Part shown: positions 2,841-14,454 of the stretch, one piece after another
Position numbering within the stretch: position 1 is the stretch's first letter
Layout of the letters: every line of letters starts with the position of its first letter
Source of the DNA: a virus
Lineage: Duplodnaviria; Heunggongvirae; Uroviricota; Caudoviricetes
DNA: 38,798 bases
Reading direction: 5' to 3' (one strand)
Virus record (IMG/VR): IMGVR_UViG_2703718804_000009
Notes under the pieces: model-generated
Told to the model about the DNA's origin: nothing
Databases searched by the model: none
The model's input: the letters and a program-made list of their open reading frames with translations, nothing else
Translations under genes and position numbers: made by a program

Positions 2841-3009
2841 TATCGCGCCCTCAACAATGAGTTTTGTGATGCGGTGCCTGGTGCCTCCAGGTGACGTTAA
2901 CCAGTTAACAATTAACGCCGGATACAGAGAATCCACCCATAACACTGTTTTTGGTTTTAACTGTTCCGCGTGCGCTTAGCCGCATTCACCGCATCACAAA
3001 ATTCACTTT

Positions 3010-3067: not shown

Positions 3068-3401
3068 ATTGATAACAGAGGGCGTTGCAGCGGGGTTGTC
3101 ACTTAAGCGTATGGTCAACCTGACAACCCGGTGTCCTCAACGGGGAAGGAATAACCCCGCCATACTTACCGCCGCGCCATTTCGCGGAGTGCCACAACCG
3201 GAAGCGCACGGTCGACGAAAATTTAACGACAGGCTATCTATGAACCAGCTACCTCGCCGTGCGCTTTCGCGTTATGGTCTGACTTTTCAGGGAAATATCC
3301 TTTCAGTAAACTGTCAGTGCCGGATGCTCACCCGTGTCCGGCGCACGTACTCCACCTCACCCGTGGAGAACTCCTTAATCACCAACCCTCAGGAGGGTGA
3401 A

Positions 3402-5784: not shown

Positions 5785-6206
5785 AAATCAAGCATGAACA
5801 CATCCGCATGGCGATGAATGCCTGGGCGCATCCGGACGGCGAAAAAGTACCGGCTGCGAAAATTACCAAAGCGTATTTCGAGCTGGGAATGACGTTCCCG
5901 GAACTGTATGACGACAGCCATCCGGAAGCCCTGGCTCGCAATACCCAGAAAATTTTCCGCTGGGTAGAGAAAGACACCCCTGATGCAGTTGAAAAAATTC
6001 AGGCGTTGTTACCAGCGATCGAAAAGGCAATGCCACCTTTGCTGGTGGCCAGAATGCGCAGCCACAGTTCAGCTTATTTTCGGGAGTTGGTGGAGACGCG
6101 GGAGCGACTGGTGAGAGACGCTGATGATTTTGTCGCAGTGGCAATCGCCGGTTTCAATCAGATGAACCGTGGTGGCCCGGCAGGAAATGCTGTGGCAGTA
6201 CATTGA
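5781..6206 (+). CDS. YdaT-like protein (CII-analogue position)
   Basis: Track ORF; MKIKHEHI N-terminus typical of YdaT as recalled; ATGA overlap with the cro-like stop. Confidence 0.55.
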   Translation: MKIKHEHIRMAMNAWAHPDGEKVPAAKITKAYFELGMTFPELYDDSHPEALARNTQKIFRWVEKDTPDAVEKIQALLPAIEKAMPPLLVARMRSHSSAYFRELVETRERLVRDADDFVAVAIAGFNQMNRGGPAGNAVAVH

Positions 6207-6277
6207 CTGACAATAGCCATATCGAATCGCTTCCGGCAACTCGTGAGTAAAAAGATTCGGTATCAGAAGAGGTGAGT

Positions 6278-7348
6278 ATGGCTAACGCCTGGCTCAGATT
6301 ATGGCATGACATGCCAAATGACCCTAAGTGGCGAACAATTGCCAGGGTGTCAGGGCAGCCAATTGCAACAGTGATGGCAGTGTATATCCACCTCCTGGTG
6401 AGCGCGTCACGAAATGTCACGCGAGGTCACATTGATGTCACGACAGAAGATTTGGCAAGTGCGCTCGACGTGACAGAAGAGGTAATTGATTCAATTTTGC
6501 AGACGATGCAGGGGCGGGTACTTGATGGTGATTTAATCACTGGATGGGAAAAACGCCAGGTGCTTAAAGAGGACAACGGCAATATTTCGCAAACCGCAAA
6601 ATCTCCTGCAGAGCGCAAGAGGGCGCAGCGAGAGAGGGAAAGAAAGCGGGAACAAAATGGCGATTGTCACGGCGCGTCACGAAATGTCACGCACATGTCA
6701 CGACGAGTCACGACAGATAAAGATACAGATAAAGATACAGATCAAGAAGATCAAAACACTATGGTCCATGGCGTAAAAAACGCCACGAACCAGGCAGGGG
6801 ATGTTCAGACCGTCAATCTTGGTCAGCCAGCAGGCACGACACCGGAAGCCGATTCAGCGTATGCGCTGAAAGCCGATTCGGGCGCTGTGCAGCAGGTGAT
6901 GACCGCAAGGCCGGAGCAATCACACCAACTGCAGCAGCCTGAAGCCGATTCCGCCATTCAGCGGGAAGCCGATCGGGTAGTCCCGGAAAACACCGGGCAG
7001 CCTGTGGGACGAGTGGATTATCCGGATGTGTTCGAACAGGTCTGGCGGGAATACCCGTTGCGTGCTGGGGCAAACCCGAAGAAATCCGCTTTCAGTGCTT
7101 GGAAGGCCAGATTACGCGAGGGGGTGTCACCAGAGGCCATGCTGGATGGCGTGAGGCGTTACGCAAGATACCTTGCGGCTACCGGGAAAACGGGAACGGA
7201 ATTTGTTCAGCGAGCGACGACGTTTTTTGGACCGGACCGGAATTTTGAAAACCCCTGGCTGCTCCCGGTAAGCGGCACGAACAACCAGCGTTGTGTGAAT
7301 CATATTTCTGAACCGGATACCGAAATTCCACCGGGCTTCAGGGGGTAA
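6278..7348 (+). CDS. replication initiation protein (lambda O-like replisome organizer)
   Basis: Track ORF 6272..7348; N-terminus MANAWLRLWHDMPNDPKWR resembles phage replisome-organizer N-terminal domains; iteron arrays embedded in the coding sequence; GAGGTGA SD before the ATG at 6278. Confidence 0.65.
   Translation: MANAWLRLWHDMPNDPKWRTIARVSGQPIATVMAVYIHLLVSASRNVTRGHIDVTTEDLASALDVTEEVIDSILQTMQGRVLDGDLITGWEKRQVLKEDNGNISQTAKSPAERKRAQRERERKREQNGDCHGASRNVTHMSRRVTTDKDTDKDTDQEDQNTMVHGVKNATNQAGDVQTVNLGQPAGTTPEADSAYALKADSGAVQQVMTARPEQSHQLQQPEADSAIQREADRVVPENTGQPVGRVDYPDVFEQVWREYPLRAGANPKKSAFSAWKARLREGVSPEAMLDGVRRYARYLAATGKTGTEFVQRATTFFGPDRNFENPWLLPVSGTNNQRCVNHISEPDTEIPPGFRG
6406..6441. repeat. iteron array 1: four GTCAC(G) repeats at about 10-bp phasing
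   Basis: GTCAC at 6406, 6416, 6426 and 6437, read directly. Confidence 0.6.
6666..6735. repeat. iteron array 2 (five GTCAC(G) repeats at 10-11 bp phasing) followed by tandem ACAGATAAAGAT x2; candidate origin of replication
   Basis: GTCAC at 6666, 6676, 6686, 6697 and 6707; tandem 12-mers at 6712-6735; architecture resembles lambda ori inside the O gene. Confidence 0.55.
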
Positions 7349-7388
7349 GTGTTGATTTCTGGTCATGAGGTAATTTTCAGGAGGACTT

Positions 7389-7811
7389 GTGGCAAAAGTT
7401 TTTACACAAGAAGAGCGAGAAAAAATTAAAGGGCAGGTTGTTGAACTCGTACGCCAGAGTGGGCGTGAGACGTTACGGCAACTGGAAGTCAAAACAGGTG
7501 CGACAAGATATCTGATGAGCGTTCTCGCAAGAGAGCTGGTTGCCAGCGGCGATGTATACAACTCTGGTTACGGGTTATTCCCGTCTGAACAGGCGCGTAA
7601 GGACTGGCAAAATGCCCGTAAAAAGCTCTCAAGGGCAAAGCTGAAGAAACCATCTGCGGTTGATCCGGACCTTATCTGGTCATTACCAGACGGAGAAATA
7701 CGCCGCTACGACAGGCGTCAGAACATAATCTGTAGCGAGTGCCGGAAGAGCGCAGCTATGCAGCGTGTACTGGCTTTCTATCAGGGTAATTTTCAGGAGG
7801 CGGTACTGTGA
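7389..7811 (+). CDS. hypothetical protein (140 aa), possible winged-helix DNA-binding protein; GTG start
   Basis: Track ORF; GGAGGA SD upstream; lies after the replication gene. Confidence 0.45.
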   Translation: MAKVFTQEEREKIKGQVVELVRQSGRETLRQLEVKTGATRYLMSVLARELVASGDVYNSGYGLFPSEQARKDWQNARKKLSRAKLKKPSAVDPDLIWSLPDGEIRRYDRRQNIICSECRKSAAMQRVLAFYQGNFQEAVL

Positions 7812-7841
7812 GTGAAATTAGCTATCAGGCTTCAATTACCG

Positions 7842-7864
7842 CTGGCATTCGCATCAAAGGAGAG
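7842..7864 (+). repeat. gene-junction repeat copy 1 (CTGGCATTCGCATCAAAGGAGAG)
   Basis: Identical 23-mer to copy 3 at 9052-9074; ends 4 nt before the ATG at 7869. Confidence 0.8.
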
Positions 7865-7868
7865 GAGC

Positions 7869-8225
7869 ATGGAAATAAAACCAGAAGATGAGTTAAGCAA
7901 TATCGTTTTATTTCCGGTAAAAGAGGATGACCCTCGTAATCAGGTTAATTTTCTTTATGAGCCATCGGAAAGACCATATTGCCATCACGCTTCTGTCCGG
8001 GTTGACGAAAAAGAGCGTCAGGTCCGCTGTAAAATCTGCGGTGCAGTTGTGGAGCCATTTGACTGGATGCTCTCTGTGGCGAAAAGAGAAACCAGACTGG
8101 CAGATGATGTAAGGCTATTGCGCCAGGAGGAACAGGAAAGACGGAAAAATATAGAAAAGTTAATTCAGATTGAGCGTAACGCGAAAGCGCGGATACGCAG
8201 GGTGACAAAATCCAGAACTGAATAA
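7869..8225 (+). CDS. hypothetical zinc-ribbon protein (118 aa)
   Basis: Internal ATG of track ORF 7812..8225 preceded by the junction repeat containing AAGGAG; CxxC-type Cys/His pairs (CHH...CKIC). Confidence 0.5.
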   Translation: MEIKPEDELSNIVLFPVKEDDPRNQVNFLYEPSERPYCHHASVRVDEKERQVRCKICGAVVEPFDWMLSVAKRETRLADDVRLLRQEEQERRKNIEKLIQIERNAKARIRRVTKSRTE

Positions 8226-8320
8226 TTAAATTTAGCACTGTTAAAAATTCGATCCTTAACCGGAGGGATTTCTGCACCCTCAGAACATCAGGAGGCCGCC
8301 CGAAAGGGCGGTAACAAATA

Positions 8321-8797
8321 ATGCAAGAAATCAAAGAAAATATCAGGCAACAGCTTTACGGGTTTTATATTGCTTATGATTTGTGGCTGAAGAACGGGGC
8401 AAAACCCGGCGGAGTGTTTTCTCAAAATTATGGTTTATGCGCCAATCTTTTCGATTATCTCACATTAATTGGTACCCCCTGTGAGGCAGCGCTGGAGCAA
8501 TTACACGCTGATTTCAGAAGTGCCGGGCTGAATGAGGCGTTGCCGTTTAACGAGGGTAAAGAGCATTACCATGAAGAAAGAGGGCACAACATGTGCCATA
8601 TGAATCCGGCACGAGTGGCGTGGGTCAGGGCGCAGACAGGGCAGCCAGCGCCGGAAGGACTGGTTAAAGCGGTGCGCTTCTATGAACAGGTTAAGCGTGA
8701 AAATCCGCCAGTCGAAACCGGAGCATGGAAAGACGCTGTTGACTGGGTTCTCGAAGAGGCTTGTCAGGCTGTAAACATTCGCATCAAAGGAGAGTGA
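8321..8797 (+). CDS. hypothetical protein (158 aa)
   Basis: Track ORF; the SD is separated from the ATG by a GNRA-loop hairpin; C-terminus IRIKGE is encoded by the junction repeat. Confidence 0.5.
   Translation: MQEIKENIRQQLYGFYIAYDLWLKNGAKPGGVFSQNYGLCANLFDYLTLIGTPCEAALEQLHADFRSAGLNEALPFNEGKEHYHEERGHNMCHMNPARVAWVRAQTGQPAPEGLVKAVRFYEQVKRENPPVETGAWKDAVDWVLEEACQAVNIRIKGE
8776..8794 (+). repeat. gene-junction repeat copy 2 (CATTCGCATCAAAGGAGAG)
   Basis: 19-mer identical to the cores of copies 1 and 3; followed by TGA then an ATG at 8800. Confidence 0.8.
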
Positions 8798-8849
8798 GAA
8801 TGCAAATAACAGCGCGCTTTATGGTGCTGTCTGGCGAGCAGCAAAAGCT

Positions 8850-9077
8850 ATGGGTTATCAACGTTGTATTACGTACACCCAGGCAGATGAATCAGGAGCA
8901 TCTCTTCGCGCAGCTGGTTTTGTTCGTGTGAAAGAGCTTCCTCCAAGAAAAAGCTGGGCGGAATCAAGCGTCGCCTTGCGGAGTAAACGCGATCCGGTCG
9001 GAAACGGTGGTGTTCCTCGTGTGCTCTGGGAAATCAGGAGAATGAGTACCACTGGCATTCGCATCAAAGGAGAGTGA
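8850..9077 (+). CDS. hypothetical protein; possibly frameshifted, because the expected start at 8800 is in a different frame
   Basis: Track ORF; the ATG at 8800 has a perfect repeat-derived SD but that frame stops after 45 codons, while the 8850 frame has no SD and stays open upstream with protein-like sequence. Confidence 0.35.
   Translation: MGYQRCITYTQADESGASLRAAGFVRVKELPPRKSWAESSVALRSKRDPVGNGGVPRVLWEIRRMSTTGIRIKGE
9052..9074 (+). repeat. gene-junction repeat copy 3 (CTGGCATTCGCATCAAAGGAGAG)
   Basis: Identical to copy 1; followed by TGA then the ATG at 9079. Confidence 0.8.
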
Positions 9078-9078
9078 T

Positions 9079-9342
9079 ATGGCAACTTTGACAAAAAAGG
9101 AACAGGCATGGTTGAGCGAATTACAGAACGTTCTTGATCGCTGCCCGTCACCGAAAAAAATTGGTTTTTACACCATTGGCGATAAAAGCATTTACCTGTA
9201 TGACCTACGCCGCATGGATGAAATCATGGAGGCTCTTGATAATCGTTCGTCAATGGATTGGTGTGTTGCTGTCCATGATATGAATGCCGGATTTGATGAA
9301 AAGATTTTATTCCCCTCATCAGTTGAAAGCACAGCAGGATAA
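9079..9342 (+). CDS. hypothetical protein (87 aa)
   Basis: Track ORF with a repeat-derived SD. Confidence 0.5.
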   Translation: MATLTKKEQAWLSELQNVLDRCPSPKKIGFYTIGDKSIYLYDLRRMDEIMEALDNRSSMDWCVAVHDMNAGFDEKILFPSSVESTAG

Positions 9343-9352
9343 GGATTAACAC

Positions 9353-10177
9353 ATGACCACTATTACCAAAGAACGTATTGAATTGTTCATTAAAAATCCG
9401 CTTGAAAACGGGCTTGCCCGTGGCGAACAAATGGAACTGGCGCAGATTGCACTGGCCTCACTGGCAGCAGAGCCGGTGGCGTGGAAGGCAACCTTCACGC
9501 AAATTGACCATGAATATAATACGTTCACCGCTATGTATTCTGACAAAGCAGAAGTCGAACGGTGGGTGCGACTGCATAAAGTAGGTGATTTTCGGGCAAA
9601 AATAACACCACTTTATGCATCATCGCCAGCGCTGGTAGTGCCTGATAAGTTGCCGCGTGAATACATAAGAGGTTGGCCTCTTGCGTATAGTGATTATGCT
9701 GAAGGATGGAACGATTGCCGCGAAGCCATGCTTCAGTCAGGAAACTTTCGGGAAAACAAGGATTCGTCAACCAATAATTTTCGGGAAATTTCGGAAACGT
9801 CAACCAACTCTCCGCTAATTCCTGGTGAAGTGTTGTCCGCAATCCGGGAGGTTGCCAGGATTCGTGCCGATTTCGATGATTTTGACGGTGACAGGCGAGG
9901 TGTTGGTGATTGTCTGGATGAGGCCGAGCAAGAGCTTATCGTTACCATTAACAAATATGCCAGTCAGTTGGCAGTAGAGCCGGTAGTACCTGATGACGTT
10001 CTGGAACAGACAGTAGCGTCGCCAGTGCCAGGTAACCAGGTTAGCGAATTAACAATGTGGGTTAAGCGTCTGGCTCACTCCTTAAAGTACGCCAATAGTT
10101 TAAGCAGCTTGCCTGATAAGGCGATGGAATATCTGAAGCAGAACGGGTTGGTAGGTGTGGAGGATATTTTACGATGA
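9353..10177 (+). CDS. hypothetical protein (274 aa)
   Basis: Track ORF; contains an internal imperfect 29-bp direct repeat at 9745-9806. Confidence 0.5.
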   Translation: MTTITKERIELFIKNPLENGLARGEQMELAQIALASLAAEPVAWKATFTQIDHEYNTFTAMYSDKAEVERWVRLHKVGDFRAKITPLYASSPALVVPDKLPREYIRGWPLAYSDYAEGWNDCREAMLQSGNFRENKDSSTNNFREISETSTNSPLIPGEVLSAIREVARIRADFDDFDGDRRGVGDCLDEAEQELIVTINKYASQLAVEPVVPDDVLEQTVASPVPGNQVSELTMWVKRLAHSLKYANSLSSLPDKAMEYLKQNGLVGVEDILR

Positions 10178-10277
10178 CCTGGCCTGAAGCATTCGCAACG
10201 GTAGGAATGGTGATGGCGGTGGCGCTGGTGGTGTATTCGATTTGCCGTTGGGGTTAACAAACAAAAACCCCGGATTG

Positions 10278-10303
10278 ATGGTCCGGGGTTTTTGAAGGAA
10301 ACA
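10278..10303 (+). terminator. intrinsic terminator
   Basis: CCCCGG / CCGGGG stem followed by TTTTT. Confidence 0.6.
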
Positions 10304-10631
10304 AAACAGAAACAACAATTGCCGTTACCTGTTGTTACCATGGCAAGTAAACGTATCTCAGGCGAGCGCATTGCGCCGTTCTGACGCAGATAAATTAGCC
10401 TGGATAGAAGGTGCTGGCAATAAAAAATAGCGTTTTCTTATCGGTGTCGGTAAGATTGCTGCGGGTGCTTGAGGCTGTCTGCCTCAGGCATGCCACTGTA
10501 AGGCAGACAGAGAAAAGCCCCAGTTAACATTACGCGTCCGGCAAGACGCTTAACATTAATCTGAGGCTCAATCTATGAACGGCAAATCTAGGTTAGCCTC
10601 TTACGCGCCGAAAGGCAAGGAGAAGCAGGCT

Positions 10632-10787
10632 ATGAAGCAGCAAAAGGCGATGTTAGTCGCCCTGATCGTCATCTGTATTACCGTCATTGTGACGGCACTG
10701 GTAACGAGGAAAGACCTCTGCGAGGTACGAATCCGAACCGGCCAGACGGAGGTCACTGTCTTCACAGCTTACGAACCTGAGGAGTAA
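10632..10787 (+). CDS. hokD: Hok/Gef-family type I toxin (51 aa), near-identical to HokD/RelF as recalled
   Basis: MKQQKAMLVALIVICITVIVTALVTRKDLCEVRIRTGQTEVTVFTAYEPEE; AAGGAG SD 9 nt upstream; structured leader; an in-frame upstream ATG at 10575 gives the 70-aa track ORF. Confidence 0.85.
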   Translation: MKQQKAMLVALIVICITVIVTALVTRKDLCEVRIRTGQTEVTVFTAYEPEE

Positions 10788-10930
10788 GAGACCAGGCGGG
10801 GGAGAAATCCCTCGCCACCTCTGATGTGTCAGGCATCCTCAACGCACCCGCACTTAACCCGCTTCGGCGTTTTTTCCGTTGATTAACTCTAGTTATTAGA
10901 GAATCGAACTTTTATTGATGGGGCAGGGAG

Positions 10931-14143: not shown

Positions 14144-14219
14144 CGGCCCTTTAGCTCAGTGGTGAGAGCGAGCGACTCATAATCGCCAGGTCGCTGGTTC
14201 AAATCCAGCAAGGGCCACC
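14144..14219 (+). tRNA. tRNA with CAT anticodon, most similar to tRNA-Ile2 (lysidine, AUA-decoding; ileX/ileZ-like); tRNA-Met not excluded
   Basis: Hand-folded cloverleaf: 7-bp acceptor stem, GCTC/GAGC D-stem, CTCATAA anticodon loop, perfect T-arm (GCTGG TTCAAAT CCAGC), CCA end. Confidence 0.7.
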
Positions 14220-14220
14220 A

Positions 14221-14297
14221 ACCGCCACTAGCTCATCAGGAAAGAGCGTCAACCCTTTAAGTTGAGTGTGCGAGGTTCGAGTCCCCGGTGGCGGTCC
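14221..14297 (+). tRNA. tRNA-like gene, atypical; predicted anticodon UUU (Lys) with C at position 33 and one T-stem mismatch; possible pseudo-tRNA
   Basis: Hand-folded: 7-bp acceptor stem (CCGCCAC/GTGGCGG), D-stem GCTC/GAGC, anticodon stem TCAAC/GTTGA with loop CCTTTAA, TTCGAGT T-loop, CCA end. Confidence 0.4.
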
Positions 14298-14299
14298 AG

Positions 14300-14375
<76 letters not shown>

Positions 14376-14378
14376 ATA

Positions 14379-14454
<76 letters not shown>

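Follow-up and report, generated by a model that had tools for sequence, protein, structure and literature searches.

A stretch of viral DNA of 38,798 nucleotides (IMG/VR record IMGVR_UViG_2703718804_000009, Caudoviricetes; hereafter the window) carries an identical repeat of 19–23 bp at three successive gene junctions, which we regard as probably being a boundary (linker) sequence of accessory-gene arrays in enterobacterial temperate phages. The original prediction, made from the letters of the window, had proposed that this repeat is a conserved linker that promotes modular exchange in lambdoid phages, and this idea is supported by the spread of the element, by the reassortment of the genes that flank it and by recombination joints that lie inside it.

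The window was read directly and searched with mismatches allowed. The exact 23-mer CTGGCATTCGCATCAAAGGAGAG occurs at 7842–7864 and 9052–9074, and its 19-nt core CATTCGCATCAAAGGAGAG at 7846–7864, 8776–8794 and 9056–9074, all on the + strand; no further copy with up to 3–4 mismatches is present in the window. Compared in pairs, the copies are identical over 19, 23 and 22 bp, the last value being that of copies 2 and 3. When the window was shuffled 100 times, the mean count was 0.00–0.01 and the observed count was never reached (0/100), so that the repeat is not due to chance. The ATG codons at 7869, 8800 and 9079 begin 4, 5 and 4 nt past the end of the repeat, and AAGGAG is found 7–8 nt 5′ of each of them; the predicted coordinates, and the claim that every copy supplies the Shine–Dalgarno sequence (SD) of the gene that follows, are therefore correct. 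The three copies are the following (ORF, open reading frame; aa, amino acids).

7842–7864, + strand: linker copy 1 (23-mer), which encodes AGIRIKGE of a mini-ORF and provides AAGGAG for the ATG at 7869.
8776–8797, + strand: linker copy 2 (19-mer core plus TGA), which encodes NIRIKGE and the stop of a 158-aa gene and provides the SD for the ATG at 8800.
9052–9077, + strand: linker copy 3 (23-mer plus TGA), which encodes TGIRIKGE and the stop of an XF1762-family frame and provides the SD for the ATG at 9079.

The peptide IRIKGE followed by TGA closes both the ORF 8321–8797 and the frame that ends at 9077, as predicted for two of the copies, but copy 1 too encodes GIRIKGE, within a 27-codon ORF; in that copy GAG replaces the TGA that usually follows the repeat. 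The statement that unrelated proteins share the hexapeptide holds for the XF1762 and 158-aa proteins, which have only the hexapeptide in common; these two are not equally distant from Ea22, the 158-aa protein having its last 49 residues in common with an Ea22-like mosaic protein.

The element is the conserved 3′ end of genes of the Ead/Ea22 family. It is about 26–34 nt long, reads …GCTGGC ATT CGC ATC AAA GGA GAG TGA tATG, and holds the last codons of the upstream gene, for (A)GIRIKGE, the AAGGAG SD with the stop codon, and the next start codon 1–2 nt further on. The ea22 gene of phage lambda ends in TCTGACGCTGGCATTCGCATCAAAGGAGAGTGA, that is …SDAGIRIKGE*, and the 23-mer of the window matches it exactly. 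The lambda Ea22 protein, which matches Pfam PF13935 (Ead_Ea22, E = 1e-28), starts with VSEINSQALRE and ends in …MMSDAGIRIKGE*, encoded by TCTGACGCTGGCATTCGCATCAAAGGAGAGTGAGATCGG. In related loci, the upstream ORFs that end in the linker are mostly mosaic MSEINYQALRE… proteins that match Pfam Ead_Ea22; 106 out of 159 cluster with MSEINYQ… proteins when the shared tail is stripped before clustering, since the tail otherwise merged all proteins. In the window itself, only the mini-ORF and the 49 C-terminal residues encoded by the 158-aa gene are derived from Ea22.

The search for exact matches that the original prediction called for finds the 19-mer beyond this genome. It is present in at least 120 IMG/VR stretches, and a 34-nt query was found in 3080 of the 5426 complete Escherichia coli genomes (57%), at 6888 places, 420 of which are on plasmids; a genome that has the element has a median of 2 copies and a maximum of 11. 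The 390 phage records that contain it include lambda, HK620, HK633, many Stx phages and Salmonella P22-like phages, together with the P1-like phages P7, SJ46, RCS47 and D6. In HK620 the element is at the hkaG|hkaF junction, and hkaG is Ead-like; in both lambda and HK620 it lies in the early-left (exo-xis / ea) region, not in nin. A broad host range was considered on the basis of a one-genome-per-species collection and rejected: 33 of the 46 matches are lambda contamination and 4 are chance matches (about 4 are expected for a 19-mer in 596 Gb). The exact 19-mer is genuine only in Escherichia, Shigella and Shimwellia, and the leftover matches are either these or misbinned contigs of metagenome-assembled genomes. 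The contaminated assemblies (among loci L280–L325) have a context identical to that of lambda; the contigs that carry it often measure about 1 kb or about 48.5 kb, and the taxa concerned include Streptomyces, Streptococcus, Shewanella, Pseudomonas and Bacillus.

The genes that surround the linker are reassorted on both sides. The 132 unique IMG/VR contexts fall into 16 upstream and 25 downstream clusters (50 nt on each side) which occur in 59 combinations, an earlier sample having given 14 upstream and 21 downstream clusters in 48 combinations; this is what had been anticipated of a sequence that marks module boundaries with variable cargo. The context of copy 1 of the window (U1/D0) is the commonest in IMG/VR. 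In the 1460 pairs of contexts that are unrelated on both sides, the identity is about 1.0 in the core, a value that is subject to ascertainment bias (the loci were found through the core itself), 0.36–0.77 over the 12 nt before the core (consensus CGCGCCGCTGG) and 0.8–0.86 through TGA(t/g)ATG, and it falls to 0.24–0.45 right past the start codon. The copies span the stop of the upstream gene and the start of the next one, copy 1 of the window having GAG for TGA. Among 130 IMG/VR loci that were found via the 87-aa gene that follows copy 3, about 62% carry, upstream of this gene, the linker or a variant with one mismatch, and at least 8 different sequences precede it. The linker was also recovered (53 occurrences) when 79 loci anchored on the DUF977 gene, which precedes the repeats, were subjected to an unbiased k-mer scan.

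Alignment with relatives, which had been put forward as a way to look for recombination breakpoints at the repeat, shows that crossovers have occurred inside the element. Locus L240 has a 158-aa-like gene, a linker, XF1762, a linker and the 87-aa gene, while locus L244 has the 158-aa-like gene, one linker and the 87-aa gene. Their flanks are 99–100% identical, and the difference is a 494-bp insertion/deletion (indel) that consists of XF1762 and one linker. The single linker of L244 is chimeric, with the variant of the left copy (CATTGGC) and the tail of the right copy (TGATATG), which places the joint within the 17 nt that are common to both copies. A systematic search found this indel class in five loci, and also a second, independent class, a 1161-bp block made of the 118-aa gene and the 158-aa-like gene, again with a chimeric linker. 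The chimeric single copies in two indel classes mean that crossovers take place within the element, which, like the anatomy of the linker and the reassortment around it, is seen directly in natural genomes. On a larger scale, positions 6200–10900 of the window were compared by BLAST with 156 loci chosen independently of the linker: 18.3% of the 799 internal endpoints of high-scoring segment pairs are in the three linker zones, which make up 2.9% of the query. Homology breakpoints are therefore enriched about 6-fold in these zones.

Breakpoint hot spots are also found at gene starts, at an internal module border of the 158-aa gene (8640–8654) and at hok/sok, and the k-mer scan of the DUF977-anchored loci returned other boundary-like strings, one of which is at 8251–8296 of the window. 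Within window 8251–8320, the conserved string GATCCTTAACCGGAGGGATTTCTGCACCCTCAGAACATCAGGAGGC has 6 x 6 contexts among related loci, and behind it a stable hairpin of the GNRA type, GCCGCCCGAAAGGGCGGU (z = -3.5), stands between AGGAGG and the ATG at 8321; it might be that this hairpin brings the distant SD near the start codon. The strings AGCCGCATTCACCGCATCACAAAATTC and TGTCACTTAAGCGTATGGTCAACCTG (window 2978–3004 and 3097–3122) have many flanking contexts, up to 8 x 8, in the DUF977-anchored loci; they may be further boundary sequences, or regulatory ones, of the immunity region. In two loci (L170 and L019), the 3′ end of the DUF977 gene and the mini-ORF are duplicated, the copies being separated by inserted genes that span about 900 bp, and an N-terminus MTTITKERIELFIK… is fused in frame to the mini-ORF; these rearrangements indicate that the 5′ end of the ea22-like ORF and the end of the DUF977 gene are recombination joints too.

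It has to be asked whether the linker is conserved only as a translational coupling junction, and is a passive passenger of random illegitimate joints followed by selection (the Hendrix model). Nearly every copy does have AAGGAG at optimal spacing and a stop 1–2 nt before the ATG, some partial variants upstream of the 87-aa gene retain just AAAGGAGAGTGAT, many breakpoints of the region are away from linkers, and most mosaic joints have no conserved boundary sequence according to PMC3029335. However, an SD needs about 6 nt, whereas 19–31 nt are identical here, including the 13 nt before the SD and synonymous positions, and the 23-mer is intact in lambda although it is followed by ATC, which is no start codon. 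Random joints would not hit the same nucleotide in 59 combinations, nor is a passive role in keeping with the chimeric linkers of the two indel classes, which put the crossovers inside the element. We therefore consider this explanation unlikely.

The linker has a sister in Klebsiella phages. A Klebsiella prophage whose array is laid out in the same way has CGCCGCTGGCATCAAGGTGGAGG, which is the E. coli linker without TCGCAT, on either side of XF1762. This sister variant, GCCGCTGGCATCAAGGTGGAGGCTGAGTGATG, encodes …AAGIKVEAE* (the typical form is …GGAGGCTGAGTGATG), and the XF1762 homologues of Klebsiella, Salmonella and Enterobacter have related tails, such as AAGIKVEVK. The sister 19-mer is present in at least 120 IMG/VR stretches, with 38 upstream and 39 downstream clusters in 99 combinations, and belongs mainly to Klebsiella phages (104 of 157 records). 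The linker is therefore a family whose versions are specific to a genus and homogeneous in their gene pool; such homogeneity is expected if exchange keeps passing through the linker. In one Klebsiella array (L329:3796–5381), the Kiwa pair KwaA/KwaB is encoded on the opposite strand just past the linker-flanked XF1762, which indicates that such arrays host defence cargo.

The anatomy of the linker bears on the ends of the proteins encoded upstream. All Ea22 proteins end with K/R-G-E despite dissimilar C-terminal domains, a feature whose significance was called unknown (Dydecka et al. 2020, PMC7093339), and the paper on the NMR structure of Ea22 (Sci Rep 2024, PMC10834534) describes a mosaic architecture. 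The DNA accounts for the K/RGE ending: AAA GGA GAG TGA, which serves the following gene as SD and holds the stop, is here read in frame. In the XF1762 family the tail is an addition. Among the best 120 of the 5657 XF1762 homologues, most are 153–154 aa long and end two residues past the conserved …GNGGVPRVLWEIRR; they end with …VLWEIRR plus 2 aa, and the extension MSTTGIRIKGE is found only in the versions from E. coli phages. The NCBIfam model XF1762 spans residues 3–136 of the 163, and one version of the protein adds …GIRIKGEEHGNKTRG, which is the linker variant found before the 118-aa gene. Foreign genes gained the tail either by being spliced onto the last few codons, as for XF1762, or by inheriting a larger C-terminal piece of Ea22, as for the 158-aa gene.

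Could the C-terminal peptide (A)GIRIKGE itself, the "K/RGE motif", be functional, for example as an interaction or stability tag that is selected in early proteins? This might be suggested by its presence at the end of all Ea22 proteins (PMC7093339) and by the related tail AGIKVE… of Klebsiella phage proteins. On the contrary, what is conserved is the nucleotide sequence, with its synonymous sites; the observed variants of the linker change the amino acid (G to D or N, R to G) as often as they leave it unaltered, and most XF1762 homologues lack the tail and stop just past the conserved core. KGE is encoded by the SD of the following gene, and the sister variant has VEAE in place of KGE but keeps a GGAGG SD. 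These observations point to a constraint on the ribosome-binding site rather than on the peptide, and we consider selection of the peptide very improbable.

Regarding the way in which exchange proceeds, the linker would be a ready-made junction for translation initiation and coupling, so that any gene placed after it would be expressed within the early operon. Since the same 25 bp or so occur at many junctions, and several prophages reside in one cell, the linker would offer short stretches of homology for recombination with co-resident phages and prophages, the presumed partners in an annealing-type reaction. Such events would insert, delete or swap the flanking genes and leave them undamaged. 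The most plausible agents would be phage single-strand annealing recombinases of the Red-beta/RecT type, and short-repeat deletion would be another route. We infer both the acting enzyme and the idea that the element is kept up because it promotes exchange. Contexts that are unrelated on both sides have an exact run in common whose median length is 25 bp; 67% of the pairs reach 23 bp or more, 43% reach 27 bp or more and 17% reach 31 bp or more. To pair efficiently, Red-beta needs a minimum of 23–27 bp and RecA one of 31–34 bp (De Paepe 2014, PMC3945230), and the length of the linker matches the Red-beta minimum.

A dedicated site-specific system, for which the element would be an integron-like recombinase site, a homing-endonuclease site or a small mobile element, would also account for flanking genes that look like cassettes and for identical copies on both sides of a single gene, and prophages of this kind do encode HNH-type nucleases. 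We find this least probable. The element contains no inverted repeat or hairpin, it has neither target-site duplications nor its own terminal repeats, the arrays have no recombinase gene that regularly adjoins them, and the crossover points vary from event to event, yet always within the shared run. An integron attC site forms a hairpin from imperfect inverted repeats and is used by a tyrosine recombinase; here there is no hairpin and no adjacent recombinase. Two other identities were tried and rejected. The three copies with 35-nt flanks fold at z = 0.9, 0.56 and -1.03, which does not suggest an RNA element, and Rfam at a permissive threshold gave nothing at the copies, and only sok at 10463–10637; a promoter or terminator cassette has no match at any copy.

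Several observations weigh against the reading of the repeat as a boundary sequence that promotes exchange, to be added to the ascertainment bias mentioned above. In 49 of the 130 loci with the 87-aa gene (about 38%), the upstream junction is unrelated and only TGATATG is shared. Most homology breakpoints of the region are elsewhere, some of them inside genes. The identity of 19–23 bp in the window and the median of 25 bp elsewhere are at the lower limit for efficient homologous recombination, and the annotation of the E. coli 33F4 prophage, which is nearly identical, lists no recombinase of the Red-beta, RecT or Erf type, only a 3′–5′ exonuclease. Replication slippage, or RecA-independent deletion between short direct repeats, would also leave a chimeric single copy, and because several processes give the same chimera, neither the enzyme nor the direction (insertion or deletion) is fixed by it. 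Last, the conservation could be maintained by selection on translation and not by exchange. The linker is one route of exchange, not the sole one.

A more ambitious version of the boundary-sequence reading, which we put forward tentatively and hold to be less probable than not, is that these are lineage-specific "plug-and-play" translational-coupling linkers of about 25 bp, of the AGIRIKGE type in Escherichia/Shigella phages and of the AAGIKVEAE type in Klebsiella phages, which would be more than passively shared gene ends: they would be maintained, homogenized in each phage gene pool and sized to the annealing minimum, and would act as a recombinase-independent counterpart of integron cassette sites. 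They would serve accessory and defence or counter-defence genes in lambdoid, P22-like and P1-like phages, possibly, by analogy with the PeSLs of T4, by way of excised cassette circles.

The concept of a linker is not new. According to PMC3029335 and PMC2839356, it goes back to the modular theory (Susskind & Botstein 1978; Botstein 1980) and to the "boundary sequences" of HK620 (Clark et al. 2001). Like the latter, the present element is short, conserved and located at module junctions of the early region, and such sequences have been proposed to be a focus for recombination; HK620 itself has the element. The unrelated flanks, the location at junctions, the two-way reassortment of modules and the joints within the sequence, all seen for the present element, are features of lambdoid boundary sequences. 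What differs is that this element is tied to the 3′ end of the ea22 family, is counted at the scale of populations, comes with chimeric products, and has a genus-specific sister variant. A literature search with the DNA string, the IRIKGE peptide, hkaG, hkaF and "boundary sequence" returned no phage paper that describes the sequence, and the epsilon34 paper says nothing on it; it may have been described earlier by Clark et al. 2001, since HK620 carries it. We rate the linker or boundary-sequence concept as known, and this well-documented case and the explanation of K/RGE as new. The two papers on the Ea22 K/RGE motif (PMC7093339, PMC10834534) deal with the same feature at the protein level, whereas here it is explained as an SD within a DNA linker and is seen on proteins other than Ea22 as well.

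Mechanistically, the nearest counterpart is found in T4-type phages, whose promoter-early stem-loop (PeSL) cassettes (Arbiol et al. 2010, PMC2839356) consist of repeated junction elements that flank non-essential ORFs in hyperplastic regions, as the linker does. In both cases neighbouring copies recombine, so that an ORF is lost or gained and one chimeric copy is left (here in the case of the XF1762 cassette), and the element carries expression signals for the next gene. However, a PeSL is an intergenic sequence of about 100 bp with a sigma-70 promoter and a terminator hairpin, while the linker, about 26–34 bp long, lies for the most part in the coding sequence of the upstream gene and lacks both a promoter and a terminator. 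Since it carries only an SD, a stop and a start, the linker works within one operon. As for enzymes, Rad52-like phage recombinases act on relaxed or short homology and make mosaics between phages and resident prophages (Martinsohn 2008, PMC2327257; De Paepe 2014, PMC3945230). This enzymology fits the linker, Red-beta needing only 23–27 bp of perfect identity, but those studies concerned diverged homologous genes over hundreds of bp, as opposed to a junction of about 25 bp between unrelated genes.

The window is a lambdoid prophage, 99.9% identical over the repeat region to that of E. coli 33F4, which is inserted between yccA and the tRNA-Ser gene that adjoins hyaA. The 33F4 prophage has, in this order, integrase, the 3′–5′ exonuclease, dicB, cI/cro/YdaT-like genes, the replisome organizer, DUF977 and small genes, followed by hokD, DUF968, RusA, Q, tRNAs, lysis genes, an HK97-type head and a lambda-type tail. 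The copies of the repeat sit among the small genes between DUF977 (7389–7811) and hok/sok, and the genes of this array are listed below.

7389–7811, + strand: DUF977 (LygF/Ren-like) gene, Pfam PF06163 with E = 1.8e-30, the conserved left anchor of the accessory array.
7808–7891, + strand: 27-codon mini-ORF MSEISYQASITAGIRIKGEEHGNKTRR, from the GTG at 7808 to the TGA at 7891.
7869–8225, + strand: 118-aa gene that follows copy 1 and matches a zinc ribbon weakly; module D0, more common than any other downstream module.
8321–8797, + strand: 158-aa chimeric gene, whose N-terminal 109 aa have no family match.
8800–9077, + strand: pseudogene of the XF1762 family, which has lost 214 bp internally, immediately past ATGCAAAT (about 8807).
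9079–9342, + strand: 87-aa gene downstream of copy 3 (module D3).
9353–10177, + strand: 274-aa gene (MTTITKERIELFIKNPLENGL…), module D4.

The start of the mini-ORF overlaps the stop of DUF977 (GTGA). Compared with full-length MSEINYQALRE…GIRIKGE proteins and with lambda Ea22, it is an Ead/Ea22-type N-terminus (MSEI-YQA) fused straight to an Ead/Ea22-type C-terminus, and it reads as a vestigial, "empty" or collapsed ea22-like gene. Its derivation from one particular full-length ea22 variant was considered and rejected, since the C-terminal codons differ in nucleotides (SITAG vs SIATG). Over its last 49 aa, the 158-aa protein matches the C-terminal end of a mosaic Ea22-like protein of the MSEINYQ… kind with 90% identity; the gene has a linker because it inherited this Ea22-type C-terminus. 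XF1762 is intact in E. coli 33F4, where it codes for 163 aa (L121:3001–3492) and ends with …VLWEIRRMSTTGIRIKGE, whereas in the window the 214-bp deletion puts the ATG at 8800 and the …TGIRIKGE* frame out of register, which makes the gene a pseudogene. This deletion was not mediated by the linker, its breakpoints being inside the gene with about 1 nt of microhomology. The intact protein has a weak Pfam match to the Mom family (E = 5e-5, under the curated cut-off). In other phages, the homologues of the 274-aa gene begin directly past the linker, whereas here the 87-aa gene precedes it without a linker.

Elsewhere in the window, iteron-like repeats (TGTCACG…, followed by tandem units of CAGATAAAGATA) lie at 6665–6745 within the O-like replisome-organizer gene and are probably the replication origin of the prophage. 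A hok/sok type I toxin–antitoxin locus is found at 10463–10787, with an Rfam sok match of 110.7 bits (10463–10637) and a 70-aa mok/hok frame (10575–10787); a strong, bidirectional-looking terminator hairpin is at 10262–10294. Four tRNA genes (14145–14454), with the anticodons CAT (tRNA-Ile by the annotation of a relative), Lys-TTT, Thr-TGT and Gly-TCC, are downstream of the Q antiterminator gene.

Whether phage mosaicism arises from conserved linkers or from random joining followed by selection has been debated since 1978, and reviews find no linkers at most joints. The ea22-derived linker is an unusually clean and abundant positive case, present in lambda and in more than half of the complete E. 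coli genomes, which joins dozens of unrelated genes and whose crossover products are preserved in natural genomes. It leaves unrelated proteins with identical C-terminal tails, and in annotation or domain analyses these could be mistaken for a functional motif. Such linkers are defined sites for experiments on linker-mediated exchange, and for delimiting accessory-gene cassettes in the annotation of prophages.

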